From positions 4,214 through 68,213 of the forward strand of contig JABHXF010000029.1 of assembly GCA_018657385.1 (NCBI GenBank): a stretch of 64,000 nt of DNA, read 5' to 3'. This document shows positions 2,775 to 15,218 of this stretch, in pieces; positions within the stretch are counted from its first letter, which is position 1; each line of letters begins with the position of its first letter. This stretch comes from Candidatus Woesearchaeota archaeon (GTDB lineage: Archaea; Nanobdellota; Nanobdellia; Woesearchaeales; DSVV01). The position numbers were made by a program, and so were the translations under genes. Under the pieces are notes generated by a model. The model saw only the letters and a list, made by a program, of their open reading frames with translations, made no database searches and was not told the DNA's origin.

Positions 2775-4877
2775 TTAAACTATATCGCCTGGATAAAAAT
2801 CAATTCTAGGGTCATATAGGTTAAGGAAGTATTTCTCTTTTTCCTTATCATTATCTGGGATTTTCCAATAGGTGTTGTCAGTGTAAGGCTTATTTTTGAC
2901 TGCTTCTATCATCTCTTGGCTTGGTCTCCAATTTAAATTTACTAATGAAAACATTTTCTTTAATGGTAATAATCTAGATTCCATTCCTTTAAGTTTATGT
3001 TCTTCAGCATTCATTGCTAATACCTTTTTCCATTGTTCAATTGATTGCTGTTCAGATATTTTTAATAATGCTTTTAATTCTTCTTCTTCACTAATCAATC
3101 TTCTATCTACTTCAACTATAAAATGTTCCATGTTATTGATTGGATCTCCTTCTAAAATTGCATGTGCAGATATAAAATCAGTTTTGAAACTTACATTTTC
3201 ATTATAGATTGTATAAATATTTACATTTTCTGGTTTCATACCTTCTCTTTCTGGCCATATGTCTGGTGCTTGTAAATCTAATAATCTTCTAATTACTAAT
3301 ATGTGTCCTGCTCCATAAATATGGCTAACATCATATGGCCCTTCTGTTTCTATTCCATAATCTAGGTAAATATCTAAATCAACTGCTGCTCCTAAGTTGT
3401 ATAATGCATTGAATATTTTTCCAAGTAATTTTGCTTTTTCAGGATTTGCTTTTTTAGGTTTAATTGTATTAATTAATTTGTAAACTTCTTCATCTCTTCT
3501 AACAATGTTTGATTTAAATGCAAAATGGTCTGCAACCATTCTGCTCATAACCATATCTAAAATGAAATTTGATATTTTCATTCTTTCTTGTTTTGGCATC
3601 TTAATAGTTTTCATGTCTAACATTGTATAATAATGCCAAACTCTTAATGCAGATACACTTTCCCAACATTTACCTAATTTTTCTGCAGGAATATTTAACT
3701 CAATTGCTTTGTTAATGAATTTCTTCATATGTGTAATATATTCTTTAGCATACATTGGATGTGCTTGGAACCAATCAAATGGTTGTTGTGTTCCTATATG
3801 CATATTTCCAATTGCTAAGTATGCTGATTTAATATATGGTGTATAAATATCATCTTTTGATTTTTTCTTTTCTTTTTCTTTGTTTTGTTTATCTAAATTT
3901 TCTAATGTTTCTATTAATTCTTCTGGAGTATAATCTTTTGTTTGTTTCTTTTCTTGAATTATTCCTTTTTTTAATAAAATCTTAGATATTTTATCAACTA
4001 TAATACTCATCATTGCACAAAATGTTTTACTTTCTAAATATTGGCCTTCTTCACTTATTTGAATTGAGATTGGAGTGATTGTTCTAAATGCTAAGAAAGT
4101 TTTCATTGTTTCATCTTTTTCTTTTTCATCCTGAAAATTATGTTCTTGTAGTCTTGCAATTACTTCATTATCTAACTTAGATTCAAAAAATAATTTTGGT
4201 GGCCTGTAAAATACACATGGTTTATCATCAGAGTAAGTTGAATCTCTAGCTCCACGCTTTTCACCAATTGCCCCTACTTTCATTGCTTCTTTAGTAATTT
4301 CAGCTTGTAAAAATTCACACATATAGGTGTTTGCTAGTTTTTTTGGTAGGTATTTATCTAAAAATTGTTTAAACTCATAAACTAATTCATCAAATAACAC
4401 ATAAGTACAAAAATGATATGAATAAAATGTTCTTAACATATATGTTGCTTTTTTTAGATTGTCAATTATTGTAGGGATGTCATCTGCATAGATTTGTTTT
4501 AATGTTTCTTCTGCTATTTTAATAATTTCTTTTGTATCTTGTGTTTTTTTTGTAAAAACTTCTATATATTTTTGAGGGTTAGCAAGAAAAAATTTCATCA
4601 TTCCTTTACTGCTTAACTCTTCTGCACACCACCATAATCCTTTTTTGTCGAAGAAGAATGGGATTTTTCTGTTGTATATTAAATATCCTTCTTTTTCAAA
4701 TCCTGGTGTGTATATAGCAATATCAAATTTTTGATGAAAATACTTTGGTCTTTCACATCTGAATATTTTGCCATCTACATCTAACTCTAATATTTGGTTG
4801 CTTTTTTCAGCAGGTCTTGCTTTTGTTGTGTATGATGTGATTTTTGATTCATCAACATCTCTTATGTCTAATCTCAT
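2775..4877 (-). CDS. Hypothetical 700-aa protein, last gene of the swivel-domain cluster
   Basis: Long uninterrupted ORF of non-repetitive composition with ATG at 4877. Its stop abuts the stop of the convergent surface-protein gene. I recognise no catalytic motif; in particular there are no PpsA/PPDK-type ATP-grasp motifs. Confidence 0.7.
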   Translation of the reverse strand: MRLDIRDVDESKITSYTTKARPAEKSNQILELDVDGKIFRCERPKYFHQKFDIAIYTPGFEKEGYLIYNRKIPFFFDKKGLWWCAEELSSKGMMKFFLANPQKYIEVFTKKTQDTKEIIKIAEETLKQIYADDIPTIIDNLKKATYMLRTFYSYHFCTYVLFDELVYEFKQFLDKYLPKKLANTYMCEFLQAEITKEAMKVGAIGEKRGARDSTYSDDKPCVFYRPPKLFFESKLDNEVIARLQEHNFQDEKEKDETMKTFLAFRTITPISIQISEEGQYLESKTFCAMMSIIVDKISKILLKKGIIQEKKQTKDYTPEELIETLENLDKQNKEKEKKKSKDDIYTPYIKSAYLAIGNMHIGTQQPFDWFQAHPMYAKEYITHMKKFINKAIELNIPAEKLGKCWESVSALRVWHYYTMLDMKTIKMPKQERMKISNFILDMVMSRMVADHFAFKSNIVRRDEEVYKLINTIKPKKANPEKAKLLGKIFNALYNLGAAVDLDIYLDYGIETEGPYDVSHIYGAGHILVIRRLLDLQAPDIWPEREGMKPENVNIYTIYNENVSFKTDFISAHAILEGDPINNMEHFIVEVDRRLISEEEELKALLKISEQQSIEQWKKVLAMNAEEHKLKGMESRLLPLKKMFSLVNLNWRPSQEMIEAVKNKPYTDNTYWKIPDNDKEKEKYFLNLYDPRIDFYPGDIV

Positions 4878-4910
4878 TTTTATTTTGTCCTTTTTTTATG
4901 GGATTGTCGC

Positions 4911-5000
4911 AAAAAACAACAACAACAATGGCACAGACGAACTTTCTTTCAGAAAGTCCTACTCGCCTAATGGCTCGCCTGGCCTATGTTGTTGTTTTTT
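4911..5000. ncRNA. Conserved GC-rich structured element, copy A of 3 (unknown family)
   Basis: Shares the blocks GGCAC[A/G]GACG, TCCTACTCGCCT and GGCTCGCC[T/C]GGCC with 12654-12738 and 24477-24573. These are enclosed by an AACAACAA/TTGTTGTT outer stem with a flanking A-run and T-run. The internal hairpin is ACTTTC/GAAAGT. The strand is unresolved. Confidence 0.5.
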
Positions 5001-5026
5001 GCTTTTTTTATTATGACCTTATTTTA

Positions 5027-5362
5027 TTATTCTTTGTCTATTACTATCATTTCTTCAGCTGCATCTAATTTTACAATGGCTCCTTCTTTGATCTCTTCTA
5101 AGCCATTAATTCCTACAATGCATGGGATGTTTAATTCTCTTGCTAATATTGATGCATGGCATGTTAACCCACCATTTTTTGATAAAATAGCAGCTGCTTG
5201 TTTTAGTTTTATTACATCTTGGGTCATGTGTTCATTTAATATTACAACATCTTTTTTAGTGTAAACTTTATTTGAATCATATTTAGTTATTTTACCTTCA
5301 ACTTCTCCTGGACATGCACATGTTCCTGTTAATAGTATTTTGTTTGTTATTTTTTCTTCCAT
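5027..5362 (-). CDS. Stand-alone PEP-utilising-enzyme mobile (phosphohistidine swivel) domain protein
   Basis: GGLTCHASILARELNIPCIVG fits the PEP-utiliser phosphohistidine signature (G-G-x-T-x-H-x-S-I-[LV]-x-R). At 111 aa there is no flanking kinase or PEP-binding domain. Confidence 0.8.
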   Translation of the reverse strand: MEEKITNKILLTGTCACPGEVEGKITKYDSNKVYTKKDVVILNEHMTQDVIKLKQAAAILSKNGGLTCHASILARELNIPCIVGINGLEEIKEGAIVKLDAAEEMIVIDKE

Positions 5363-5364
5363 TT

Positions 5365-5712
5365 TTATTCCTCTATCTTATGAACTTCTCCAGTTGTTCC
5401 ACACATTTCAATAACATCTCCATCTTTTAGTATTTCAGTAATTGGTTTTCCTGTTTCAATACATTTTGTTGAAACAATACATGGGATTCCTAATTCTCTG
5501 CTAACAATTGATGGATGTGATGTTAATCCTCCAACATTACATATTATTCCAGCTGAATTATTCATCACAATAACCATTGTTGGATCAGTTAGATGTGTTA
5601 CAAGGATATCATTTTCATTGAATTTGTCGTGGTCATCCATATTTCTAATTATCTTAACCTTTCCACATACTTTTCCCTGACTAACTCCATGTCCTTTAGC
5701 TATTTGTTTCAT
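5365..5712 (-). CDS. Stand-alone PEP-utilising-enzyme mobile (phosphohistidine swivel) domain protein, paralogue
   Basis: GGLTSHPSIVSRELGIPCIV carries the same phosphohistidine signature. 115 aa, with a 2-nt gap to the next swivel gene. Confidence 0.8.
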   Translation of the reverse strand: MKQIAKGHGVSQGKVCGKVKIIRNMDDHDKFNENDILVTHLTDPTMVIVMNNSAGIICNVGGLTSHPSIVSRELGIPCIVSTKCIETGKPITEILKDGDVIEMCGTTGEVHKIEE

Positions 5713-5727
5713 TTTTATTTACCTTTT

Positions 5728-6837
5728 TCAGTGAGACATAGTGTATTCATTTACTCCTTTACTACAATAAATTGTGTTTGATCTGCCTTTAGCATTGACG
5801 TTATCATATTTATGAAGTAATTCTTCAACTAATTCTCTATGTTTTGACATTAGTTCTTTATTTTTTTGTAAACTTTCTACTAATTTTTTTGATTCGTCAA
5901 CTCCTATTGCAAATGCAGGGCTGTCTAATGTTCTTAAACTTCTTTGTCTTGGTACAAGATCTTCAATAACAAAGTCATAAGCTTTTGTTCCTTTGATTGC
6001 ATCTAAAAAACCTGGTGCTTTTTTTGCAAGATATTTTTTAAGATAAGCAATATCTGTTTTTTGACTTCTTTCACACCAATCACTTTCTATTTCAACATAT
6101 CCTAAAATTTTTCTTAGTCCCTGTTCCATTACTGCATCATCTACTAATCCTTCTCTGTATAATGGTAATCTTTGTCCAATGATCATCTCTGCTTCTGCAA
6201 AGCCTCTTATTGGATAATTTCCATCATGATACCAAATTCCATCTAAAACTTTCTGTAATAATGTTGAACTAGTTGTTGGAACAACAATCTGTTTGCCTTT
6301 TGCAGCTGAAATAACAGCTTTTTGTAGTTCTTTATTGTCTCCTAAATCACAAACATCTAACATTGCTGCACCAAACAAATCATCTTCAATTGGACCTTTT
6401 AAATAAACAACATTTCCAAATGTAATGGCATGTTCTGGTGTTACTAATGTTTCTAAAGCTTCTCTAGGAATTGCTGTTTCTAGTGATTCTCTTTTTAATC
6501 CTAAAACGATATCATGAAAAACTCCAGCTAGAAAAGCTGTTTCTGTGTCATGTGGAAAATATACATCTGGAGAAACACCTGATTCATCTAAGATCTTTAC
6601 AAGTTCAGCAGAACCATCTGCAACATCAAAACAATGAATTGCTTCGTGTCCCATCCCAGCTGGAGAGCCATGTTCAACTAATAATTTTAGTGTAGGCATT
6701 AATGCCTGTGTTACTCCATATTTATCCATCATATTAGCAACTTCTGTTGATGTGTAAAAACCATTATTACTCCATCCTTTTTCATTTTCAAAACCTATTT
6801 GGTTTAATAAACTAATTGCTTCATTTTTTTTATTCAT
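5728..6837 (-). CDS. Hypothetical protein with an HD-phosphohydrolase-like N-terminal half
   Basis: The string GHEAIH...FPHDTETAFLAGVFHDIVLG resembles the H...HD...(L/F)HDIG pattern of HD-domain hydrolases. The listed ORF starts at a GTG (6852); ATG at 6837 (MNKKNEA) is the likelier start. Confidence 0.6.
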   Translation of the reverse strand: MNKKNEAISLLNQIGFENEKGWSNNGFYTSTEVANMMDKYGVTQALMPTLKLLVEHGSPAGMGHEAIHCFDVADGSAELVKILDESGVSPDVYFPHDTETAFLAGVFHDIVLGLKRESLETAIPREALETLVTPEHAITFGNVVYLKGPIEDDLFGAAMLDVCDLGDNKELQKAVISAAKGKQIVVPTTSSTLLQKVLDGIWYHDGNYPIRGFAEAEMIIGQRLPLYREGLVDDAVMEQGLRKILGYVEIESDWCERSQKTDIAYLKKYLAKKAPGFLDAIKGTKAYDFVIEDLVPRQRSLRTLDSPAFAIGVDESKKLVESLQKNKELMSKHRELVEELLHKYDNVNAKGRSNTIYCSKGVNEYTMSH

Positions 6838-6851
6838 TTTTATTCCCCACA

Positions 6852-6965
6852 CTATTTCATCAATACTAAAATTAAAAGTAAGATTACAACTAATGTCCAG
6901 ATGCTTGATAAGTTAATGTTGAATACTCTCTGTCTTTCAAACATCATACTTGCTTTTCCTTCCAT
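6852..6965 (-). CDS. Possible 37-aa single-TM micro-protein (first cistron of the operon)
   Basis: My translation is MEGKASMMFERQRVFNINLSSIWTLVVILLLILVLMK. A GAGGG Shine-Dalgarno-like motif lies 8 nt upstream. The stop TAG at 6852-6854 abuts the next gene. Too short to be sure. Confidence 0.35.
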   Translation of the reverse strand: MEGKASMMFERQRVFNINLSSIWTLVVILLLILVLMK

Positions 6966-7032: not shown

Positions 7033-7048
7033 TGTCGGAATTCCGACA
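7033..7048. promoter_or_regulatory. Perfect 16-bp palindrome TGTCGGAATTCCGACA centred between two divergent TATA boxes
   Basis: The sequence is self-complementary. The minus-strand TATA TTTATATA (7018-7025) lies 8 nt to its left and the plus-strand TATA CTTTATAAAT (7061-7070) 12 nt to its right. Confidence 0.6.
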
Positions 7049-7123
7049 GCAGAACAGAAACTTTATAAATTTCATGTGTAATGTTTGTATTATACACATA
7101 AATCTGGTGTATTTTGGTGTAAA

Positions 7124-8248
7124 ATGGATGTTAAAAATGTACTATCTGAATTAGGATTAGGTGAGGGTGAAATTAAAGTATATTTAGCTCTATTAAAGCT
7201 AGGAAGTAGTCCCGTAAGTGCACTTAAAGAAGAAACTAACCTACATAGAACTACAATCTATGATTTTATTGAAAAATTGCTTAACAAAGGTTTAGCAAAT
7301 TATGTTTTAAGAGGTAATGTAAAATATTATCAAGCAACTGATCCTCAAAGATTATCTGATTTTCTTAATGAAAAAGCTTCTAGATTAAATGAAGTAATGC
7401 CAGAATTAGTTAAAATGAGTGAATTTCAAAAAAAAGATCTTAATGTAGAAGTTTTCAAAGGTAAAGAGGGCTATAAAGCTGCATTAGGGTTGGTAATAAA
7501 AGAAGGAAAAAATCTTATTGGTATGGGTTTTGAAGAAGAAAGATTTGAAGAGCTTATTCCAGACACTATGAGATGGTATTTTAGAGAAGCTAAAGAAAAA
7601 GGTATTAAAGAAAGAATATTTGTTAAGGATAGTGCTGAATTTTTTTATCCCCATGATAATATATCTTATAAATCTTTACCTGATGAATATTTTAATCCAA
7701 ACCAAACAATGACTTTTGGTGACTATGTTGCACTTCATATTTGGGATCCGTTCTCTACAATTGTTATTAAGAATAAGGATTTAGCGAATTCATATAGGAA
7801 ATGGTTTGAAATGTTGTGGGAACAAAATGTAAAAATAATCAAGGGTAATGATAGTCTTAAAAGAATGTTTGATTCACACTTACGTGATTTAAAAAAAGGA
7901 GATGATATGATTGTTTTTGGTAGTTCTAAACATATTCCCAAATATTTTAATAAATATTTTAATGATTATATTCCTAACTTAGCTAATAATGGAGTTAAAC
8001 CCAAAATTATTTTTGATGAAGATGCACATTCGCTGATAAATGCATGTAAAGATAATAATTGGGTAGTTAAGACCTTACCAAGAAAATATATTTCACCAAT
8101 AGAAGTAAACCTTTGGAAAAATAAAGCTGCAATTGTGATTTGGAAAGAAGAACCAGTTGCTTTTATTATTGAAGACAAAGAAGTGGCAGATGGTTTTAAA
8201 GCTTTCTTTGAGATACAATGGGATATTGCTAAGAAAGTGAAAAAATAG
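7124..8248 (+). CDS. TrmB-family transcriptional regulator
   Basis: N-terminal winged HTH: LGLGEGEIKVYLALLKLGSSPVSALKEETNLHRTTIYDFIEKLLNKGL, with a long TrmB-like C-terminal domain. ATG at 7124 is preferred over 7085 because the TATA at 7061-7070 would otherwise lie inside the ORF. Confidence 0.8.
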   Translation: MDVKNVLSELGLGEGEIKVYLALLKLGSSPVSALKEETNLHRTTIYDFIEKLLNKGLANYVLRGNVKYYQATDPQRLSDFLNEKASRLNEVMPELVKMSEFQKKDLNVEVFKGKEGYKAALGLVIKEGKNLIGMGFEEERFEELIPDTMRWYFREAKEKGIKERIFVKDSAEFFYPHDNISYKSLPDEYFNPNQTMTFGDYVALHIWDPFSTIVIKNKDLANSYRKWFEMLWEQNVKIIKGNDSLKRMFDSHLRDLKKGDDMIVFGSSKHIPKYFNKYFNDYIPNLANNGVKPKIIFDEDAHSLINACKDNNWVVKTLPRKYISPIEVNLWKNKAAIVIWKEEPVAFIIEDKEVADGFKAFFEIQWDIAKKVKK

Positions 8249-9844: not shown

Positions 9845-10125
9845 AGTGGACAGGCATGCCCAGTAATGGCCATATAAACGAGCCTGAGGTTTAACCCTCA
9901 TCCATTCTCAGTAAGGCTACCTCACAAGCACCTATGTAAAAACTTAATGCTGCTTCCGTCAGGATCTGACATAGTTCGTAAACACACAAGTCCTATGAGA
10001 CCAAACATCATGGGCAAGATAAGGACCTCCTGCCTGAATATATGACGCTTACCAAGCTTCAACTCCTGCATAAGTCCGTTACAGGTAACAGGTGAGGACT
10101 AACCACCCAGTCTAGCCTATCCAAG
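9845..10125 (-). ncRNA. ffs: Signal recognition particle RNA (archaeal 7S/SRP RNA)
   Basis: An ORF-free region richer in GC than its surroundings. The minus strand reads GUCAGAUCC-UGAC-GGAAGCAGC, matching the conserved helix-8 motif (compare E. coli 4.5S GUCAGGUCC-GGAA-GGAAGCAGC). The 5' GGAUAGGC (10115-10122) pairs with the 3' GCCUGUCC (9848-9855). At about 280 nt with an upstream TATA, it fits an archaeal SRP RNA. The ends are approximate. Confidence 0.75.
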
Positions 10126-12748: not shown

Positions 12749-13678
12749 TTATTTTATATTAAGTTGTTTTTTTAATTTTGCAACTAATAGCTTTCCTTGT
12801 TTATTGTCTAAAGTTCCTTCATGGAAAAAATCTACTTTAGTAGCAATTGAAATTGCACTTGCTAAATGTCTTGCTGCTTTACCTTTGTCTTTATGCTTTG
12901 CAGTTCCAACAAAAGGATGGTTAATAATAATCCCATGTTTAGGACATCTAGCTCTTTTATTTTTTAAATGTCTAAATAATGCTTTTTCTGCACCTAATAA
13001 TTGGATTGTAGAGGAAGTCATCTCTGCTAGATTTTCTAGGGTATGTGCATGTTCAATTAATTCAGCAGCAATTGTAGTAGTAGCAACTTCCATTAAATTA
13101 GGGCAATGGTAACTCATGATTTCTTCAATATAATTTTTTTCTTCTTCTCTTAATTTGATTAAATTACTGATTTCTTTAGCTAAGCTTTTCATTTGATTAA
13201 CATCTTCAGTTGATAAATCACTTCCAATTGTTCTAACACCAAATTCTTTCTCTAATGTAGTTCTTTTTTTTGTTGATACTATTTTTGCATATGCTTCATT
13301 ATCATCTATTTTCAAATCTAGTTCTGGAAAGTATAAACTATACCATTCTCTTAATCTTTTACTAAGAAGATTTATTACTCTGTTTAAATCATCAATATTA
13401 TTAATTGCTTGATTAATTAAATTATCTGTTCTAACAGATTTGATTAAGTCTTTTTTAGTTTTATCCATATTGAATTTATAGAATAATTCATTGAATGTTT
13501 TGTCTTTTGGAAAAACAAAATCAGAATCAGCTTTTTCTACACTCTTTTTTAAATATTCTTTTTCATATTTTAGCTTGTTTTTCCTATCTGTTAGATTTTT
13601 AAATAGTTTTTTAGCTATTACTTTGTCTCCTTTAAGCATAAATGTGCCAAATATGTTGGTATAAACTGTTTTGTTCAT
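12749..13678 (-). CDS. nop5: Nop5 (Nop56/58) C/D box RNP core protein
   Basis: The C-terminal NOP domain reads AAELIEHAHTLENLAEMTSSTIQLLGAEKALFRHL...PKHGIIINHPFV. There is a coiled-coil middle region and fibrillarin lies immediately downstream. Confidence 0.85.
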   Translation of the reverse strand: MNKTVYTNIFGTFMLKGDKVIAKKLFKNLTDRKNKLKYEKEYLKKSVEKADSDFVFPKDKTFNELFYKFNMDKTKKDLIKSVRTDNLINQAINNIDDLNRVINLLSKRLREWYSLYFPELDLKIDDNEAYAKIVSTKKRTTLEKEFGVRTIGSDLSTEDVNQMKSLAKEISNLIKLREEEKNYIEEIMSYHCPNLMEVATTTIAAELIEHAHTLENLAEMTSSTIQLLGAEKALFRHLKNKRARCPKHGIIINHPFVGTAKHKDKGKAARHLASAISIATKVDFFHEGTLDNKQGKLLVAKLKKQLNIK

Positions 13679-13780
13679 TATATATAAGATTACTATATCT
13701 GTTTAAATAGTTTCTTGTAAGTTTAGGTGTAATTTACTTTAAAAGGAAGCTTTAAATATTACTTATTTATCCAGAATATC

Positions 13781-14524
13781 ATGCATATAGGAATTCAAGG
13801 GAAAGTAAGTTTCATAATTGATACTGATGAAAGATTAAGGGAAGAATTAAAGTATGTTAATCAGGTTTTAGCTGGTTATATGCCTCAATTAGATGTTCTT
13901 TCTAGTTTTAGACCTGAAGAAAGTTGGTTTTTAAGAAAGCCTGAAGGAACCCATGGTATTGCTCATGAAGCAAGAGTTTTAGTCTTTGCTGAACTTTTAG
14001 GTAGGCTATATCAAACAGAAAAGGGGCTAGGATCAATTGATTTAGATGTTTTAAGAAGAGCTGCTTCTACTCATGATATTAGGAGGAGTAGTGATCTTGT
14101 TGATATTGGACATGGTGAAAGAGCTGCAAGTTTTTATTTAGATAATCTAATTGCTAATGGTTATGTTAATGATAATGGAATTGATTCAGAAAAAGTTGCT
14201 TATGTTAATAGTTGGCATGTTCCAGATGATCATCATGCACCACATATGACTTCAGAATTAATGCTGTTTAAGGATGCAGATGGTTTAGATAGGGTAAGGA
14301 TAGAACATAATGGCCAAGGAATGGATATGTCATATGCTAGGTTTGAGCAAACAAGTCATTTTGTTGCAACTGCAGCTTATTTATTCAAAATTAGTAATGC
14401 TATTATGTTTTCAGGAGTTGATCAGTTTGATGCTGTAATGCAAGCTGCAGGAATGTTAGGATTAATAGAAAATGATTATGCAAAATCTTTAATTAATTAT
14501 AGTACTACTAATGTTACTGAATAA
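13781..14524 (+). CDS. HD-domain protein (putative metal-dependent phosphohydrolase)
   Basis: HGIAHEARV...AASTHDIRR...DADGLDRVR fits the H...HD...D pattern. TATA-like CTTTAAATATT lies about 20-28 nt upstream of the ATG, which suggests a leaderless mRNA. Confidence 0.6.
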   Translation: MHIGIQGKVSFIIDTDERLREELKYVNQVLAGYMPQLDVLSSFRPEESWFLRKPEGTHGIAHEARVLVFAELLGRLYQTEKGLGSIDLDVLRRAASTHDIRRSSDLVDIGHGERAASFYLDNLIANGYVNDNGIDSEKVAYVNSWHVPDDHHAPHMTSELMLFKDADGLDRVRIEHNGQGMDMSYARFEQTSHFVATAAYLFKISNAIMFSGVDQFDAVMQAAGMLGLIENDYAKSLINYSTTNVTE

Positions 14525-15218
14525 TTGTTCCAATAAACTCTTTGCCATCTAAGAAGTTTTTAATGTTCTTTAAATCATTACCATTAATTATTACAACTTT
14601 CTTGCCTAGTTTCATTGCTTGTTTACTTGCAACAGGATCAAATGGTGTATTCCTACCTGGAATCCATTCTTCTCCAATAATCTCTAAGTAATCTTTCCAA
14701 GTTACCTCTTTCAATGGTTTAGCACCTTTATGTTTTTTAGGATCTTTATCATAAACATAATCAATGTTTGTTAGATTAATAACAACATCTGCTTTAATAT
14801 TTTCAGCTAATAATACTGCATCCATATCTGTGCTATGGCCTGGTTCATGACCAGAACCAATAATTATTTTTTTATTTGATTTAATTGGATCTCTTGGATT
14901 ATCAATAACTTTTTCATAAGCATCTTCTCCAAACACACTTCTGACTAATTCTGCATTAAGATTTGTTGATCTAATACCAATCCAATCTAAGTCATCATTA
15001 TCTTTACAACCAAGTTCTCTAGCTGCATCTTGATAAATTCTACAAGTTTTACCGCCACCACAAATAATTGCAGCTTTATGACCTTGATTAGTAAAATCTA
15101 GAATTAATTTTTTGAATTCTTTTATAAATTTAAGATCTATTTTATCAGGAACAACCATTGATCCGCCTAATGACATTATTATGTTTTTCATTTTATTTTT
15201 CTCCTTTATATTGGCCAA
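14514..15218 (-). CDS. pyrH: UMP kinase, archaeal type (amino-acid kinase fold)
   Basis: MSLGGSMVVP, AAIICGGGKTCRIYQDAARELG and DWIGIRSTNLNAELV. The start may be one of several N-terminal Met codons. The 3' end overlaps the convergent HD gene by 11 nt. Confidence 0.8.
   Translation of the reverse strand: MANIKEKNKMKNIIMSLGGSMVVPDKIDLKFIKEFKKLILDFTNQGHKAAIICGGGKTCRIYQDAARELGCKDNDDLDWIGIRSTNLNAELVRSVFGEDAYEKVIDNPRDPIKSNKKIIIGSGHEPGHSTDMDAVLLAENIKADVVINLTNIDYVYDKDPKKHKGAKPLKEVTWKDYLEIIGEEWIPGRNTPFDPVASKQAMKLGKKVVIINGNDLKNIKNFLDGKEFIGTIIQ

Follow-up and report, generated by a model that had tools for sequence, protein, structure and literature searches.

An operon of a Candidatus Woesearchaeota archaeon encodes, with a probability of about 0.6, a multi-component, dikinase-like phosphotransferase that uses phosphohistidine swivel domains. 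The N-terminal domain of a 700-residue protein (N-dom) would be its donor module and the C-terminal domain (C-dom) its acceptor module, and an HD-like protein with a second swivel would form a side branch. An enzyme of the PEP synthase/rifampin kinase type would thereby be distributed over separate proteins of a single regulated operon, with two large parts that resemble no known protein. The window, which is the whole stretch of DNA analyzed, comprises 64,000 nucleotides (assembly GCA_018657385.1, contig JABHXF010000029.1, forward strand, positions 4,214–68,213). The operon lies on the minus strand and encodes a 37-residue peptide, the HD-like protein, two free swivel proteins, and the 700-residue protein; the gene of a TrmB-family regulator is divergent from it. 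The features, numbered by position in the window, are as follows.

7085–8248, plus strand: TrmB-family regulator, 387 residues (PF01978)
7033–7048, unstranded: candidate palindromic operator TGTCG-N6-CGACA, between the divergent promoters
6852–6965, minus strand: 37-residue MEGxAS micropeptide with a hydrophobic C-terminus, leader open reading frame of the operon
5728–6852, minus strand: HD-superfamily-like protein, 374 residues (weak Pfam HD match)
5365–5712, minus strand: swivel-1, free phosphohistidine carrier, 115 residues (PF00391)
5027–5362, minus strand: swivel-2, free phosphohistidine carrier, 111 residues (PF00391)
4909–5002, minus strand: hairpin ("structured element A") in the spacer between the genes of swivel-2 and the 700-residue protein
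2775–4877, minus strand: 700-residue protein, composed of N-dom and C-dom
3864–4877, minus strand: N-dom, residues 1–338 of the 700-residue protein, proposed phosphoryl-donor module
2775–3860, minus strand: C-dom, residues 340–700 of the 700-residue protein, proposed acceptor-binding module

The listing of open reading frames places all genes of the operon where the preliminary description had put them on the minus strand; the length of 369 residues that it gave for the HD-like protein corresponds to a probable ATG start five codons inside the 374-residue frame. Its claim of two free proteins that are swivel domains and nothing more also holds. Swivel-1 matches PF00391 with an E-value of 2.1e-20 (72.5 bits) and swivel-2 with 6.1e-19 (67.8 bits), far over the gathering score of 23.1 bits, and the signature with the intact catalytic histidine is GGLTSHPSIVSR in swivel-1 and GGLTCHASILAR in swivel-2. 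The two swivels are not equivalent. They are 38% identical. In the swivel alignment, swivel-1 groups with every fused swivel, and fusion to N-dom or C-dom is restricted to the swivel-1 class. By contrast, swivel-2, with its class motifs TGxCxCPG and GGLTCHASILARE, is always free and adjoins the HD gene in four relative loci (L001, L004, L016, and L017). The catalytic histidine is kept in all sequences of both classes. As judged from the alignment, swivel-2 is a class separate from swivel-1 that is found only alongside the HD protein.

The 700-residue protein consists of two separable modules and, as had been noted from its letters, contains no motif that can be placed: it has no sequence match in Pfam, NCBIfam, or the PDB. 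C-dom belongs to a large family, which accounts for most of 411 clusters and in which free-standing proteins of about 350 residues predominate. A C-dom profile of 84 sequences still has no sequence match in Pfam or the PDB, and no lysine, arginine, or histidine is invariant across these sequences. A recognizable nucleotide-binding motif is absent from both domains. In the AlphaFold model, N-dom, with a pLDDT of 80–96 over most of its length, is a five-stranded sheet with one inserted helix followed by long helices, and C-dom is formed by helices, a five-strand meander, and helices again. Neither predicted domain resembles an ATP-grasp or a TIM barrel with its alternating β/α arrangement. Foldseek identified no significant structural relative of the 700-residue or HD-like models, and statements at the level of folds are weak because all matches have E-values of at least 0.18.

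The least probable of the readings considered here is that the operon encodes a trivially split PEP synthase or PPDK, in which N-dom would be a diverged ATP-grasp and C-dom a diverged TIM barrel, and which would interconvert pyruvate and PEP. TrmB regulators in Thermococcales control sugar and gluconeogenic genes, the best NCBIfam matches of both swivel proteins are PEP synthase models, and the longest fused relatives, described below, have nearly the size and domain order of PEP synthase. However, none of the proteins of the operon gives a PPDK_N or PEP-utilizers_C match at E ≤ 1 against Pfam or NCBIfam, in agreement with the preliminary description, which had recognized no ATP-grasp or PEP-binding domain. 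At E ≤ 10, the profiles of N-dom and C-dom do not match any PDB chain of PEP synthase, PPDK, or RPH, and hhalign gives a probability below 1% for the pairing of N-dom with genuine PPDK_N. Chains of PEP synthase or PPDK are also missing from the top 50 Foldseek matches of the 700-residue protein. Sequence, profiles, and predicted secondary structure are thus all against a split PEP synthase, and the dissimilarity of the AlphaFold models to ATP-grasp and TIM barrel leads to the same conclusion; the 700-residue protein is not a recognizable PpsA or PPDK.

The modular organization of the enzyme is apparent from natural fusions in its relatives. N-dom occurs alone, fused to swivel-1, in the arrangement N-dom–swivel–C-dom, and with another domain and a swivel (P0034). 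C-dom, where it is not stand-alone, is found as swivel–C-dom, N-dom–swivel–C-dom, C-dom–C-dom, and fused to PPDK_N. The best 150 profile matches include 14 swivel–C-dom, eight N-dom–swivel (P0008–P0011 are N-dom–swivel-1 proteins), and two N-dom–swivel–C-dom proteins. The last two, P0025 and P0027, are 789–797 residues long and have the size and domain order of PEP synthase, with approximately 330 residues in N-dom, 110 in the swivel, and 350 in C-dom. In P0146, C-dom and a canonical ATP-grasp of the PPDK_N type (PF01326, E 2e-97) form one protein, and a gene for a free swivel lies immediately upstream; the ATP-grasp occupies the position of N-dom in the present operon. L017, L001, and L016 have the genes in the linear order N-dom, swivel-1, C-dom, and in the lineage of the window N-dom and C-dom are fused and swivel-1 has moved upstream. 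Taken together, the combinations N-dom–swivel, swivel–C-dom, N-dom–swivel–C-dom, and C-dom–PPDK_N show, at the level of sequence, that N-dom, swivel-1, and C-dom belong to a single swivel-histidine phosphotransferase as its three modules. The protein that had been described as a single 700-residue unit is better regarded as two modules that flank swivel-1 in the order of PEP synthase.

The complete set of TrmB, palindrome, HD protein, swivel-2, N-dom, swivel-1, and C-dom is present in about ten distinct loci from Woesearchaeota and Nanoarchaeota, in four gene orders and with unrelated flanks. The neighborhood comparison therefore confirms that the gene association is conserved beyond this genome. 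Together with the fusions, it upholds the earlier proposal of a split phosphotransfer system of free swivels and non-canonical partners. The system may operate in the manner of PEP synthase, PPDK, and rifampin phosphotransferase, with substrate modules that are not homologous to theirs. N-dom would charge the histidine of swivel-1 from a bound phosphoryl donor, which is most likely a nucleotide; the free swivel-1 would then take the phosphate to C-dom, where it would be handed to the bound acceptor. The proposed assignment of N-dom as donor and C-dom as acceptor module is drawn from two fusion architectures only.

Alternatively, an ATP-grasp of the PpsA or RPH type encoded elsewhere in the genome could charge the free swivels, and both N-dom and C-dom would be acceptor or specificity modules. 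Most loci with C-dom lack N-dom (L007, L012, L018, L019, and that of P0176), so C-dom can be served by something other than N-dom, and in one of the loci without N-dom, that of P0146, the fused ATP-grasp is the donor. Furthermore, L004 encodes an RPH/PigC-like "head" that ends in a swivel, and its vicinity contains no ATP-grasp. However, PPDK_N was found neither in the 64-kb window nor, with the exception of L012, in any of 25 retrieved loci (243 kb in total). The ATP-grasp position is occupied by N-dom in the N-dom–swivel–C-dom proteins and in P0034, which by its sequence has the layout of RPH with a C-terminal swivel, and the direct fusion of N-dom to swivel-1 in eight representatives is expected of a charging partner. 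An ATP-grasp encoded elsewhere is therefore an unlikely, although not negligible, source of the phosphate.

The 374-residue protein is probably a metal-dependent, HD-superfamily-like phosphohydrolase. The HD resemblance that had been noticed in its N-terminal half is real: Pfam HD matches eight of 11 homologues (best E 9e-5), and the H...HD motif is retained even in very divergent versions. Residues H69, E70, H73, D76, H113, D114, D157, D158, H209, and D210 are invariant. However, the assignment is below curated thresholds, because the protein itself scores 18 bits against a cut-off of 22 bits. Its AlphaFold model (pLDDT 86.5, pTM 0.88) is all-helical, and the top Foldseek matches are PDE4D/PDE8A/PDE2A, an HD dNTPase, and SP1746, with E-values of 0.18–1.2 and TM-scores up to 0.37–0.41. 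The protein shares the all-helical structure and the invariant H...HD...D/HD pattern with HD phosphohydrolases, including class I cyclic-nucleotide phosphodiesterases, but differs from them in the sub-threshold match, the marginal fold similarity, and the large, unassigned C-terminal half of its approximately 370 residues. The HD protein and swivel-2 occur only in loci with N-dom and are absent from five C-dom loci that lack it. This co-occurrence suggests that the HD-type phosphohydrolase has a carrier of its own in swivel-2, the second one of the system. Together they might drain or reset phosphate, as a sink or regulatory branch, or they might serve a further chemical step with the same substrate. 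We know of no precedent for an HD-type protein paired with a dedicated swivel protein.

The recurrence of phosphatase-like genes beside those of swivels and C-dom could also indicate an ATP-independent relay, in which a phosphatase-type partner loads the swivel histidine from a phosphorylated metabolite or nucleotide, and a PTS-like chain leads to the acceptor. That partner would be the HD protein in the present operon, and a His_Phos_1 or weakly HAD-like protein in loci without N-dom. The HD gene is present in all full loci and is linked to swivel-2, L012 encodes a His_Phos_1 protein (24.0 bits, cut-off 21.7 bits), and L004 and L018 share a conserved protein of about 210 residues that is weakly HAD-like. 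Swivel domains in PTS enzyme I and DhaM are pure phosphate carriers, and over the swivel region the NCBIfam model of PtsI (TIGR01417) matches both small proteins, and that of DhaM matches swivel-2 as well. However, to our knowledge, HD enzymes form no covalent phospho-enzyme intermediate and do not phosphorylate proteins. The resemblance to HAD falls short of the threshold and is absent for L018, and the ATP-grasp of P0146 suggests that at least some members of the family use ATP as their donor. We therefore consider a relay of this kind improbable. PTS enzyme I and DhaM systems share with the present operon the swivel as a carrier in a chain of separate proteins, but the operon lacks HPr, EIIA, and a PEP-binding domain; PEP as the donor is unsupported.

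The split design is less unusual than the preliminary description had assumed, because split dikinases are already known: in HpeHI, CreHI, and the phenylphosphate synthase PpsAB, the swivel travels from one subunit to another (PMC12167813). Their donor is a canonical ATP-grasp subunit, their swivel shares a polypeptide with a RIF-binding-like acceptor domain, and the pathways encoded by their operons also include a dephosphorylation step (PMC12167813). The Woesearchaeota system is likewise a swivel-histidine phosphotransferase in separate polypeptides. However, its swivel stands alone as a protein of about 110 residues, and neither the operon nor its surroundings encode an ATP-grasp. N-dom and C-dom resemble neither of the partners of those dikinases in sequence, the system additionally contains a second swivel and an HD protein, and the host is a DPANN archaeon. 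With RPH-Lm (PDB 5FBU, 5HV1), whose mechanism is established (PMC4844700), it shares the three-module logic of donor domain, acceptor-binding domain, and swivel histidine; the acceptor domain of RPH has an unusual fold of helices and a small α/β sandwich, without classical kinase residues (PMC4844700). Structure 5FBU is the third-ranked Foldseek match of the 700-residue protein, and none of the ten best-ranked matches exceeds its probability of 0.44, although it is not significant (E 0.84, TM 0.20). Differences from the RPH/PigC family are the lack of sequence similarity beyond the swivel, the missing ATP-grasp, and the order N-dom, swivel, C-dom instead of ATP-grasp, RIF-binding domain, swivel. 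PEP synthase (PpsA) and PPDK have in common with the present system the GGxT(S/C)H motif of the swivel and, in P0025 and P0027, the module order and the length of about 790 residues, but not the domains on either side of the swivel.

The divergent gene belongs to the TrmB family, as had been proposed, with 55.6 bits against PF01978 (cut-off 25.6 bits), and a TrmB gene of 374–392 codons occupies the same divergent position in every full locus. The palindrome TGTCG-N6-CGACA has a single match in the 64-kb window, where about 0.01 would be expected by chance according to an estimate from base composition. In about ten distinct relatives, each locus contains exactly one copy, located in every case between the genes of TrmB and the HD protein. 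TrmB would bind the palindrome between the divergent promoters and control both transcription units. The invariable association with a TrmB gene and a conserved operator, together with the resemblance of two carriers and a phosphatase-like protein to a phosphorelay with a sink, could instead point to a signaling device, in which phosphate would pass along the swivels to govern the activity of TrmB or a different regulator, with N-dom and C-dom as sensors. However, no architecture contains a swivel fused to a regulator, and C-dom fused to an ATP-grasp, or C-dom paralogues behind one swivel (L019 and L007), look like substrate-specific heads. TrmB adjoining catabolic or biosynthetic operons is ordinary. 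A signaling function is therefore very unlikely, and a phosphotransferase regulated by TrmB is preferred.

The structured element of the earlier description is a 94-nucleotide hairpin with a perfect outer stem of 16 base pairs; the 149-nucleotide spacer that holds it (4878–5026) has a folding energy of −44.6 kcal/mol (z = −5.95). An orthologue with a compensatory change is present in L011 and the hairpin is absent in other relatives; a function in the enzyme system is improbable. The 37-residue micropeptide is not present in more distant loci. It is conserved in two relatives: in L011, where its gene precedes that of the HD protein, the conservation is at the protein level (tblastn E 1.6e-6), and in L013 it is recognizable.

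The candidate phosphotransfer genes of the window are five closely packed open reading frames on the minus strand, at positions 2775–6965, as delineated by ORF calling. They are divergent from a gene for a TrmB-family regulator.

Features of the operon and its upstream region in the window
2775–4877, minus strand: 700-residue protein; open reading frame following a 149-nt spacer after swivel-2
5027–5362, minus strand: 111-residue phosphohistidine carrier, swivel-2; PF00391, E 6.1e-19
5365–5712, minus strand: 115-residue phosphohistidine carrier, swivel-1; PF00391, E 2.1e-20
5728–6852, minus strand: 374-residue HD-like protein; open reading frame, sub-threshold match to Pfam HD
6852–6965, minus strand: 37-residue peptide; open reading frame
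7033–7048: palindrome TGTCG-N6-CGACA, one copy in the window
7085–8248, opposite direction to the operon: 387-residue TrmB-family regulator; PF01978

The two small carriers are swivel domains without any other domain, as the preliminary description had it: they match the PEP-utiliser mobile domain (PF00391) with 72.5 and 67.8 bits, compared with a curated score of 23.1, and their GGxT(S/C)H-loop motifs, GGLTSHPSIVSR and GGLTCHASILAR, have the catalytic histidine intact. The same description held that no recognisable ATP-grasp or PEP-binding domain accompanies them and that the 700-residue protein contains no placeable motif. Searches of Pfam and NCBIfam bear this out, since no PPDK_N ATP-grasp or PEP-utilizers_C domain matches the operon proteins at E ≤ 1, and the 700-residue protein is likewise unmatched in both libraries and among the sequences of the PDB. 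Neither domain is detected anywhere in the 64-kb window. The divergent regulator, also reported previously, possesses the N-terminal winged-helix domain of the TrmB family (PF01978, 55.6 bits versus a curated score of 25.6). A known anti-phage defence system is excluded, because four operon proteins were analysed with PADLOC without a match to a defence model; the TrmB protein displays a weak HTH similarity to Csa3/CasR and nothing more.

A word-indexed search with the 700-residue protein identified only eleven relatives. Four of them (P0008–P0011, 434–441 residues) are fusions of a swivel domain to a counterpart of residues 1 to ~320 of the 700-residue protein, and the gene following P0009 in its contig (358 residues) matches the second half. 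Judged from these relatives, the 700-residue protein is composed of an N-domain (residues 1–335) and a C-domain (residues 345–700), both belonging to a swivel machine. When 1.84 billion cluster representatives were searched with an HMMER profile, 411 relatives were identified, 270 of them with E ≤ 1e-10. The best 150 of the 411, together with 19 relatives from the earlier searches, were sorted by architecture using home-made HMMs, and the swivel domain of the fused proteins was verified with Pfam.

Domain architectures among the best 150 of 411 relatives and 19 relatives from earlier searches (number of proteins)
C-domain alone: 109
swivel + C-domain: 14
N-domain alone: 14
N-domain + C-domain: 8
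N-domain + swivel: 8
C-domain + C-domain: 3
N-domain + swivel + C-domain: 2 (P0025, 797 residues; P0027, 789 residues)

These "Rosetta-stone" fusions show that the N-domain, swivel and C-domain act together. Their natural order is N-swivel-C, as in PEP synthase; the donor–swivel–acceptor order of PEP synthase and PPDK is present in P0025, P0027 and the genes of locus L017, and is rearranged in the window. Two further relatives have informative compositions: P0146 combines a C-domain with a canonical PPDK_N ATP-grasp (PF01326, E 2e-97) and is directly preceded by a free swivel gene and a gene of the histidine-phosphatase superfamily, and P0034 contains an N-domain, an unrelated region of 250 residues and a C-terminal swivel. 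The C-domain family comprises at least 270 clusters at 50% identity (E ≤ 1e-10) and has no matching model in the copy of Pfam searched. The residues invariant across 84 C-domain sequences, D450, D502, G513, Y515, Y558, W650 and P652, include no basic one. The N-domain retains R43, N183, D236, R265, Q273 and E276, and its loop 200–235, which is highly conserved and disordered in the AlphaFold model, might serve as a lid or in docking.

A trivially split PEP synthase is an unlikely reading of the 700-residue protein. PEP synthase and PPDK have an N-terminal ATP-grasp domain (PPDK_N, PF01326) and a C-terminal PEP/pyruvate TIM barrel; by contrast, the system described here has no match to the former, and the latter is not detected. 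Profiles of the N-domain (10 sequences) and C-domain (84 sequences) retrieved no chain of PEP synthase, PPDK or rifampin phosphotransferase (RPH) from the PDB at E ≤ 10, and PDB sequence searches with single proteins and with the C-domain (84), N-domain (10) and HD (11) profiles returned chance-level matches only. None of the 84 C-domain sequences matches a relevant Pfam family. Alignment of the N-domain or C-domain profile to the real PPDK_N of P0146 by hhalign has a probability below 1%, and the probabilities for the N-domain against the C-domain, and for each against the middle domain of P0034, are all below 2%.

The AlphaFold model of the 700-residue protein has a mean pLDDT of 78, with values of 80–96 over most of the N-domain; the structure predictions rest on shallow alignments, of 8 and 11 sequences. 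In the model, the N-domain is formed by three strands, a helix and two strands, which are followed by long helices of up to about 50 residues. The C-domain has eight helices, a five-strand meander (residues 510–595) and five helices. These predicted patterns fit neither an ATP-grasp nor a beta/alpha barrel. Comparison of the model with the PDB using Foldseek produced nothing below E 0.7; RPH-Lm (5FBU) was ranked third (E 0.84, TM 0.20), and its probability of 0.44 exceeded those of the other nine top-ranked matches. Protein-kinase-like matches (MTR kinase, HPK1, APH; TM about 0.2) were treated as noise. The rifampin (RIF)-binding domain of RPH combines an alpha/beta sandwich with a helical apex and a four-helix bundle (PMC4844700). 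The layout of the C-domain, with helices, a small sheet and helices, would be compatible with this and recalls it loosely, but the sequences show no similarity. A trivially split PEP synthase is disfavoured in the sequence, profile, secondary-structure and Foldseek tests, and the earlier view of the 700-residue protein as not recognisably PpsA or PPDK agrees with the lack of a PEP synthase or PPDK signal in Pfam, NCBIfam, PDB profiles, hhalign, AlphaFold and Foldseek.

Alignment of the swivel domains of the window, the loci of relatives and the fused proteins divides them cleanly into two classes, and the catalytic histidine is kept in every aligned member of both. The swivel-1 class has the pattern GVSxGK...TDPxMV...GGxTSHPSIVSRE and includes all the swivels fused to an N-domain or C-domain; the free swivel preceding the C-domain in split loci is also of this class. 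The swivel-2 class, with the pattern TGxCxCPG...GGLTCHASILARE, always consists of free proteins of 100–115 residues. The two swivels of the window are 38% identical.

The classification of the 374-residue protein as HD-like stands in part. The Pfam HD model (PF01966) matches eight of its eleven homologues (best E 9.1e-5), but the protein itself, with 18 bits, is below the curated score of 22. The invariant residues are H69, E70, H73, D76, H113, D114, D157, D158, H209, D210 and N212, which include the H...HD...D metal-binding residues (H73, H113-D114, D157-D158 and H209-D210). The predicted structure is all-helical (pLDDT 86.5, pTM 0.88), and its top Foldseek matches, PDE8A, PDE4D, PDE2A, an HD dNTPase and SP1746, are weak (E 0.18–1.2, TM up to 0.37–0.41). 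Class I phosphodiesterases have a related helical, metal-binding catalytic fold. In locus L011, the N+C protein is 80% identical to that of the window, and the protein in the HD position is extremely divergent; the HD-position proteins of L011 (4064–5143) and L016 (718–1767) have only the H-x3-HC and (A/G)LxHDI motifs in common with that of the window, which suggests paralogue replacement or very fast evolution. The pattern of conservation indicates that selection keeps the metal-binding core. The protein is therefore given, with moderate confidence, the working assignment of an HD-type metal-dependent phosphohydrolase.

Related loci were obtained from the contigs of relatives and from scans of GTDB genomes and JGI metagenomes. 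The scans with closer alignment contributed five loci from GTDB genomes and six from JGI metagenomes, and the named hosts are all Woesearchaeota-type. There are about ten distinct full loci, whose named hosts are labelled Woesearchaeota or Nanoarchaeota, apart from two "Methanosarcinales" labels that are distrusted. The two metagenome-assembled genomes concerned (L014 and L015) are labelled "uncultured Methanosarcinales archaeon"; their loci are Woesearchaeota-like, and the automated label is likely wrong. HMM annotation of the loci distinguishes four gene orders.

Gene orders of full loci (square brackets enclose fused domains)
HD, swivel-1, swivel-2, [N+C]: window, L002, L005, L011, L013, L014
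HD, swivel-2, [N+swivel-1], C: L001, L016
HD, swivel-2, N, swivel-1, C: L017
as L017, with a 212-residue gene between N and swivel-1: L004

The flanks of the full loci vary among lineages; examples are genes of the ribosome and RNA polymerase, of the exosome, or of ABC transporters. Therefore, the association is not mere local synteny, and the grouping of genes first noticed in the window is conserved beyond the genome of origin. A divergent TrmB gene (374–392 residues) is found in every full locus with sufficient upstream sequence. In each of these loci, the palindrome TGTCG-N6-CGACA occurs exactly once, always between the TrmB and HD genes (one each in L001, L002, L004, L005, L011, L013, L014 and L017, and in their duplicates), compared with a chance expectation, estimated from base composition, of about 0.01 matches per 64 kb. 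As a phylogenetic footprint, the palindrome marks a likely TrmB operator. The N+C gene of L005 (8794–10799, NCBI MAG contig) is split into 190 and 501 residues; it is intact, with 688 residues, in L006 (5733–7799, Logan assembly), the HD protein of which is identical to that of L005. The break probably stems from misassembly or a frameshift error, not from a genuine division of the gene.

Five C-domain loci are without an N-domain (L007, L012, L018, L019 and the P0176 locus), and neither the HD protein nor swivel-2 occurs in any of them; the flanks of L018 and the P0176 locus are long. Therefore, the N-domain, HD protein and swivel-2 travel together and constitute an extension of a simpler core of swivel-1 and C-domain. 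The differing flanks, the TrmB gene with its palindrome and the N-less loci support a functional unit. The phosphatase-type gene of L012, the locus of P0146, matches His_Phos_1 with 24.0 bits (cut-off 21.7). A protein of about 210 residues is encoded directly upstream of swivel-1 and the C-domain in L004 (9364–10002) and L018 (5035–5667); the two copies are 43% identical and belong to no Pfam family, with a weak HAD match in L004 (E 0.0017) and none in L018. The motifs D-x-L-G-P, SAGTP and YEDT in its sequence are reminiscent of the HAD fold, and it is tentatively considered HAD-type. The recurrence of a phosphatase-type gene in N-less loci hints at a coupling of phosphorylation to dephosphorylation across the whole family. 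A 252-residue protein of L007 was considered as a histidine phosphatase; it has the IHRHG motif only, with no Pfam support, and the function is not claimed. L007 also has an MFS transporter. L019 (241–2798) and L007 (62–3448) contain one free swivel-1 gene before, or between, two diverged C-domain paralogues, which in L019 are 28% identical, a small "one carrier, several heads" arrangement. L004 additionally encodes, 1.7 kb downstream of the main system (13049–14545), a 498-residue protein that includes a PigC/RedH/RPH-like region and ends in a swivel; it adjoins a second, short TrmB gene, and no ATP-grasp is nearby.

The modules belong together, both carriers keep the histidine, and the gene set is conserved and co-regulated. 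By analogy with PEP synthase, PPDK, RPH and split dikinases, swivel-1 would be charged at one module and would deliver the phosphate at the other, and the mechanism of RPH provides a precedent for transfer by a swivel histidine between modules (PMC4844700). The N-domain is proposed as the donor module and the C-domain as the acceptor, because the C-domain is fused to a genuine ATP-grasp in P0146, the N-domain occupies the position of the ATP-grasp in the N+swivel+C proteins and P0034, and the C-domain has no invariant basic residue, which resembles the RIF-binding domain, where the phosphohistidine itself performs the chemistry. The least certain part of the mechanism is what the HD protein and swivel-2 do: they might be a phosphate sink or reset for the carrier, catalyse a hydrolytic half-reaction or carry out a later dephosphorylation, comparable to the Hpe and phenol pathways.

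Dikinases convert ATP into AMP, Pi and a phosphorylated acceptor through His~P, and the system may work like these swivel-histidine enzymes. However, RPH and two-component dikinases use an ATP-grasp donor, and neither the operon, nor the 64-kb window, nor the flanks of any full locus contain one; among the loci examined, an ATP-grasp was seen only in the N-less relative P0146 of L012. It is conceivable, with a probability of about 0.3, that the N-domain is a new donor "engine", distinct from an ATP-grasp, that charges the swivel histidine directly, maybe from a donor other than ATP, and that in these Woesearchaeota it takes over the task of the PpsA-type ATP-grasp in this operon. The HD protein and the swivel-2 reserved for it would then be a second, new swivel partner in a four-protein machine devoid of sequence-detectable ATP-grasp, TIM-barrel or RIF-binding modules. 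The main rival is a hub-and-spoke organization, in which the free swivels are charged by a PpsA-type ATP-grasp whose gene lies elsewhere, and the N-domain is another specificity module; however, searches of the window and of 243 kb of fetched loci found no PPDK_N, except in L012. An ATP-independent, PTS-like relay through phosphatase-type proteins is possible, although HD enzymes have no precedent for such a role. The swivel system could also serve in signalling; however, no fusion to a regulator supports this.

To our knowledge, swivel-histidine enzymes have so far used few donor and acceptor folds, those of PEP synthase, PPDK, PTS enzyme I, rifampin phosphotransferase, glucan dikinases and phenol/acetophenone kinases. 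Here the carrier is retained and paired with two large modules and an HD-type protein unlike anything characterised. Split dikinases such as HpeHI, CreHI and PpsAB are already known (PMC12167813), and a split is thus not novel by itself. What is new are two large partner modules without detectable relatives among characterised proteins, the confinement of the complete system to a small set of DPANN archaea and, as far as the sequences indicate, carriers that are free proteins of two specialised classes, an obligatory HD partner and control by TrmB and its operator. A literature search found no description of such a system and nothing relevant on free-standing swivel proteins in DPANN. If the N-domain is the donor, it would represent a new way of loading a phosphohistidine carrier. 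The C-domain family would gain annotation as a class of acceptor modules. The natural fusions (N+swivel, swivel+C and N+swivel+C) are ready constructs for biochemistry and structure determination, and the conserved candidate operator offers a route to the inducing ligand and thence to the substrate. For the biology of DPANN archaea, the system is a conserved, regulated set of enzymes in genomes whose metabolism is little understood.

The spacer between the swivel-2 and 700-residue protein genes holds a hairpin in the minus-strand RNA ("element A", window 4909–5002); the spacer folds with an energy of −44.6 kcal/mol and a z-score of −5.95. An orthologous copy occupies the same position in the closest relative, L011 (5862–6003), where a compensatory change has turned GCC/GGC of an inner helix into GGC/GCC. 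No such hairpin is present in L013 or any other relative, in which the swivel-2 and N+C genes abut or overlap. At the Rfam gathering threshold, the window has a single match, an archaeal SRP RNA (RF01857, 114.7 bits; 9848–10122, minus strand). Conserved counterparts of the 37-residue MEGxAS peptide, with its hydrophobic tail, are present in the two closest lineages (L011, 3913–3984; L013, about 4757). In L001 (6424–6594) and L018 (4871–5038), the operon starts instead with a conserved soluble protein of 53–56 residues, which has the pattern ..LLGV..DEE[IV]M.L[IV]KEAY...VRLP.G.G.V.VRLP.
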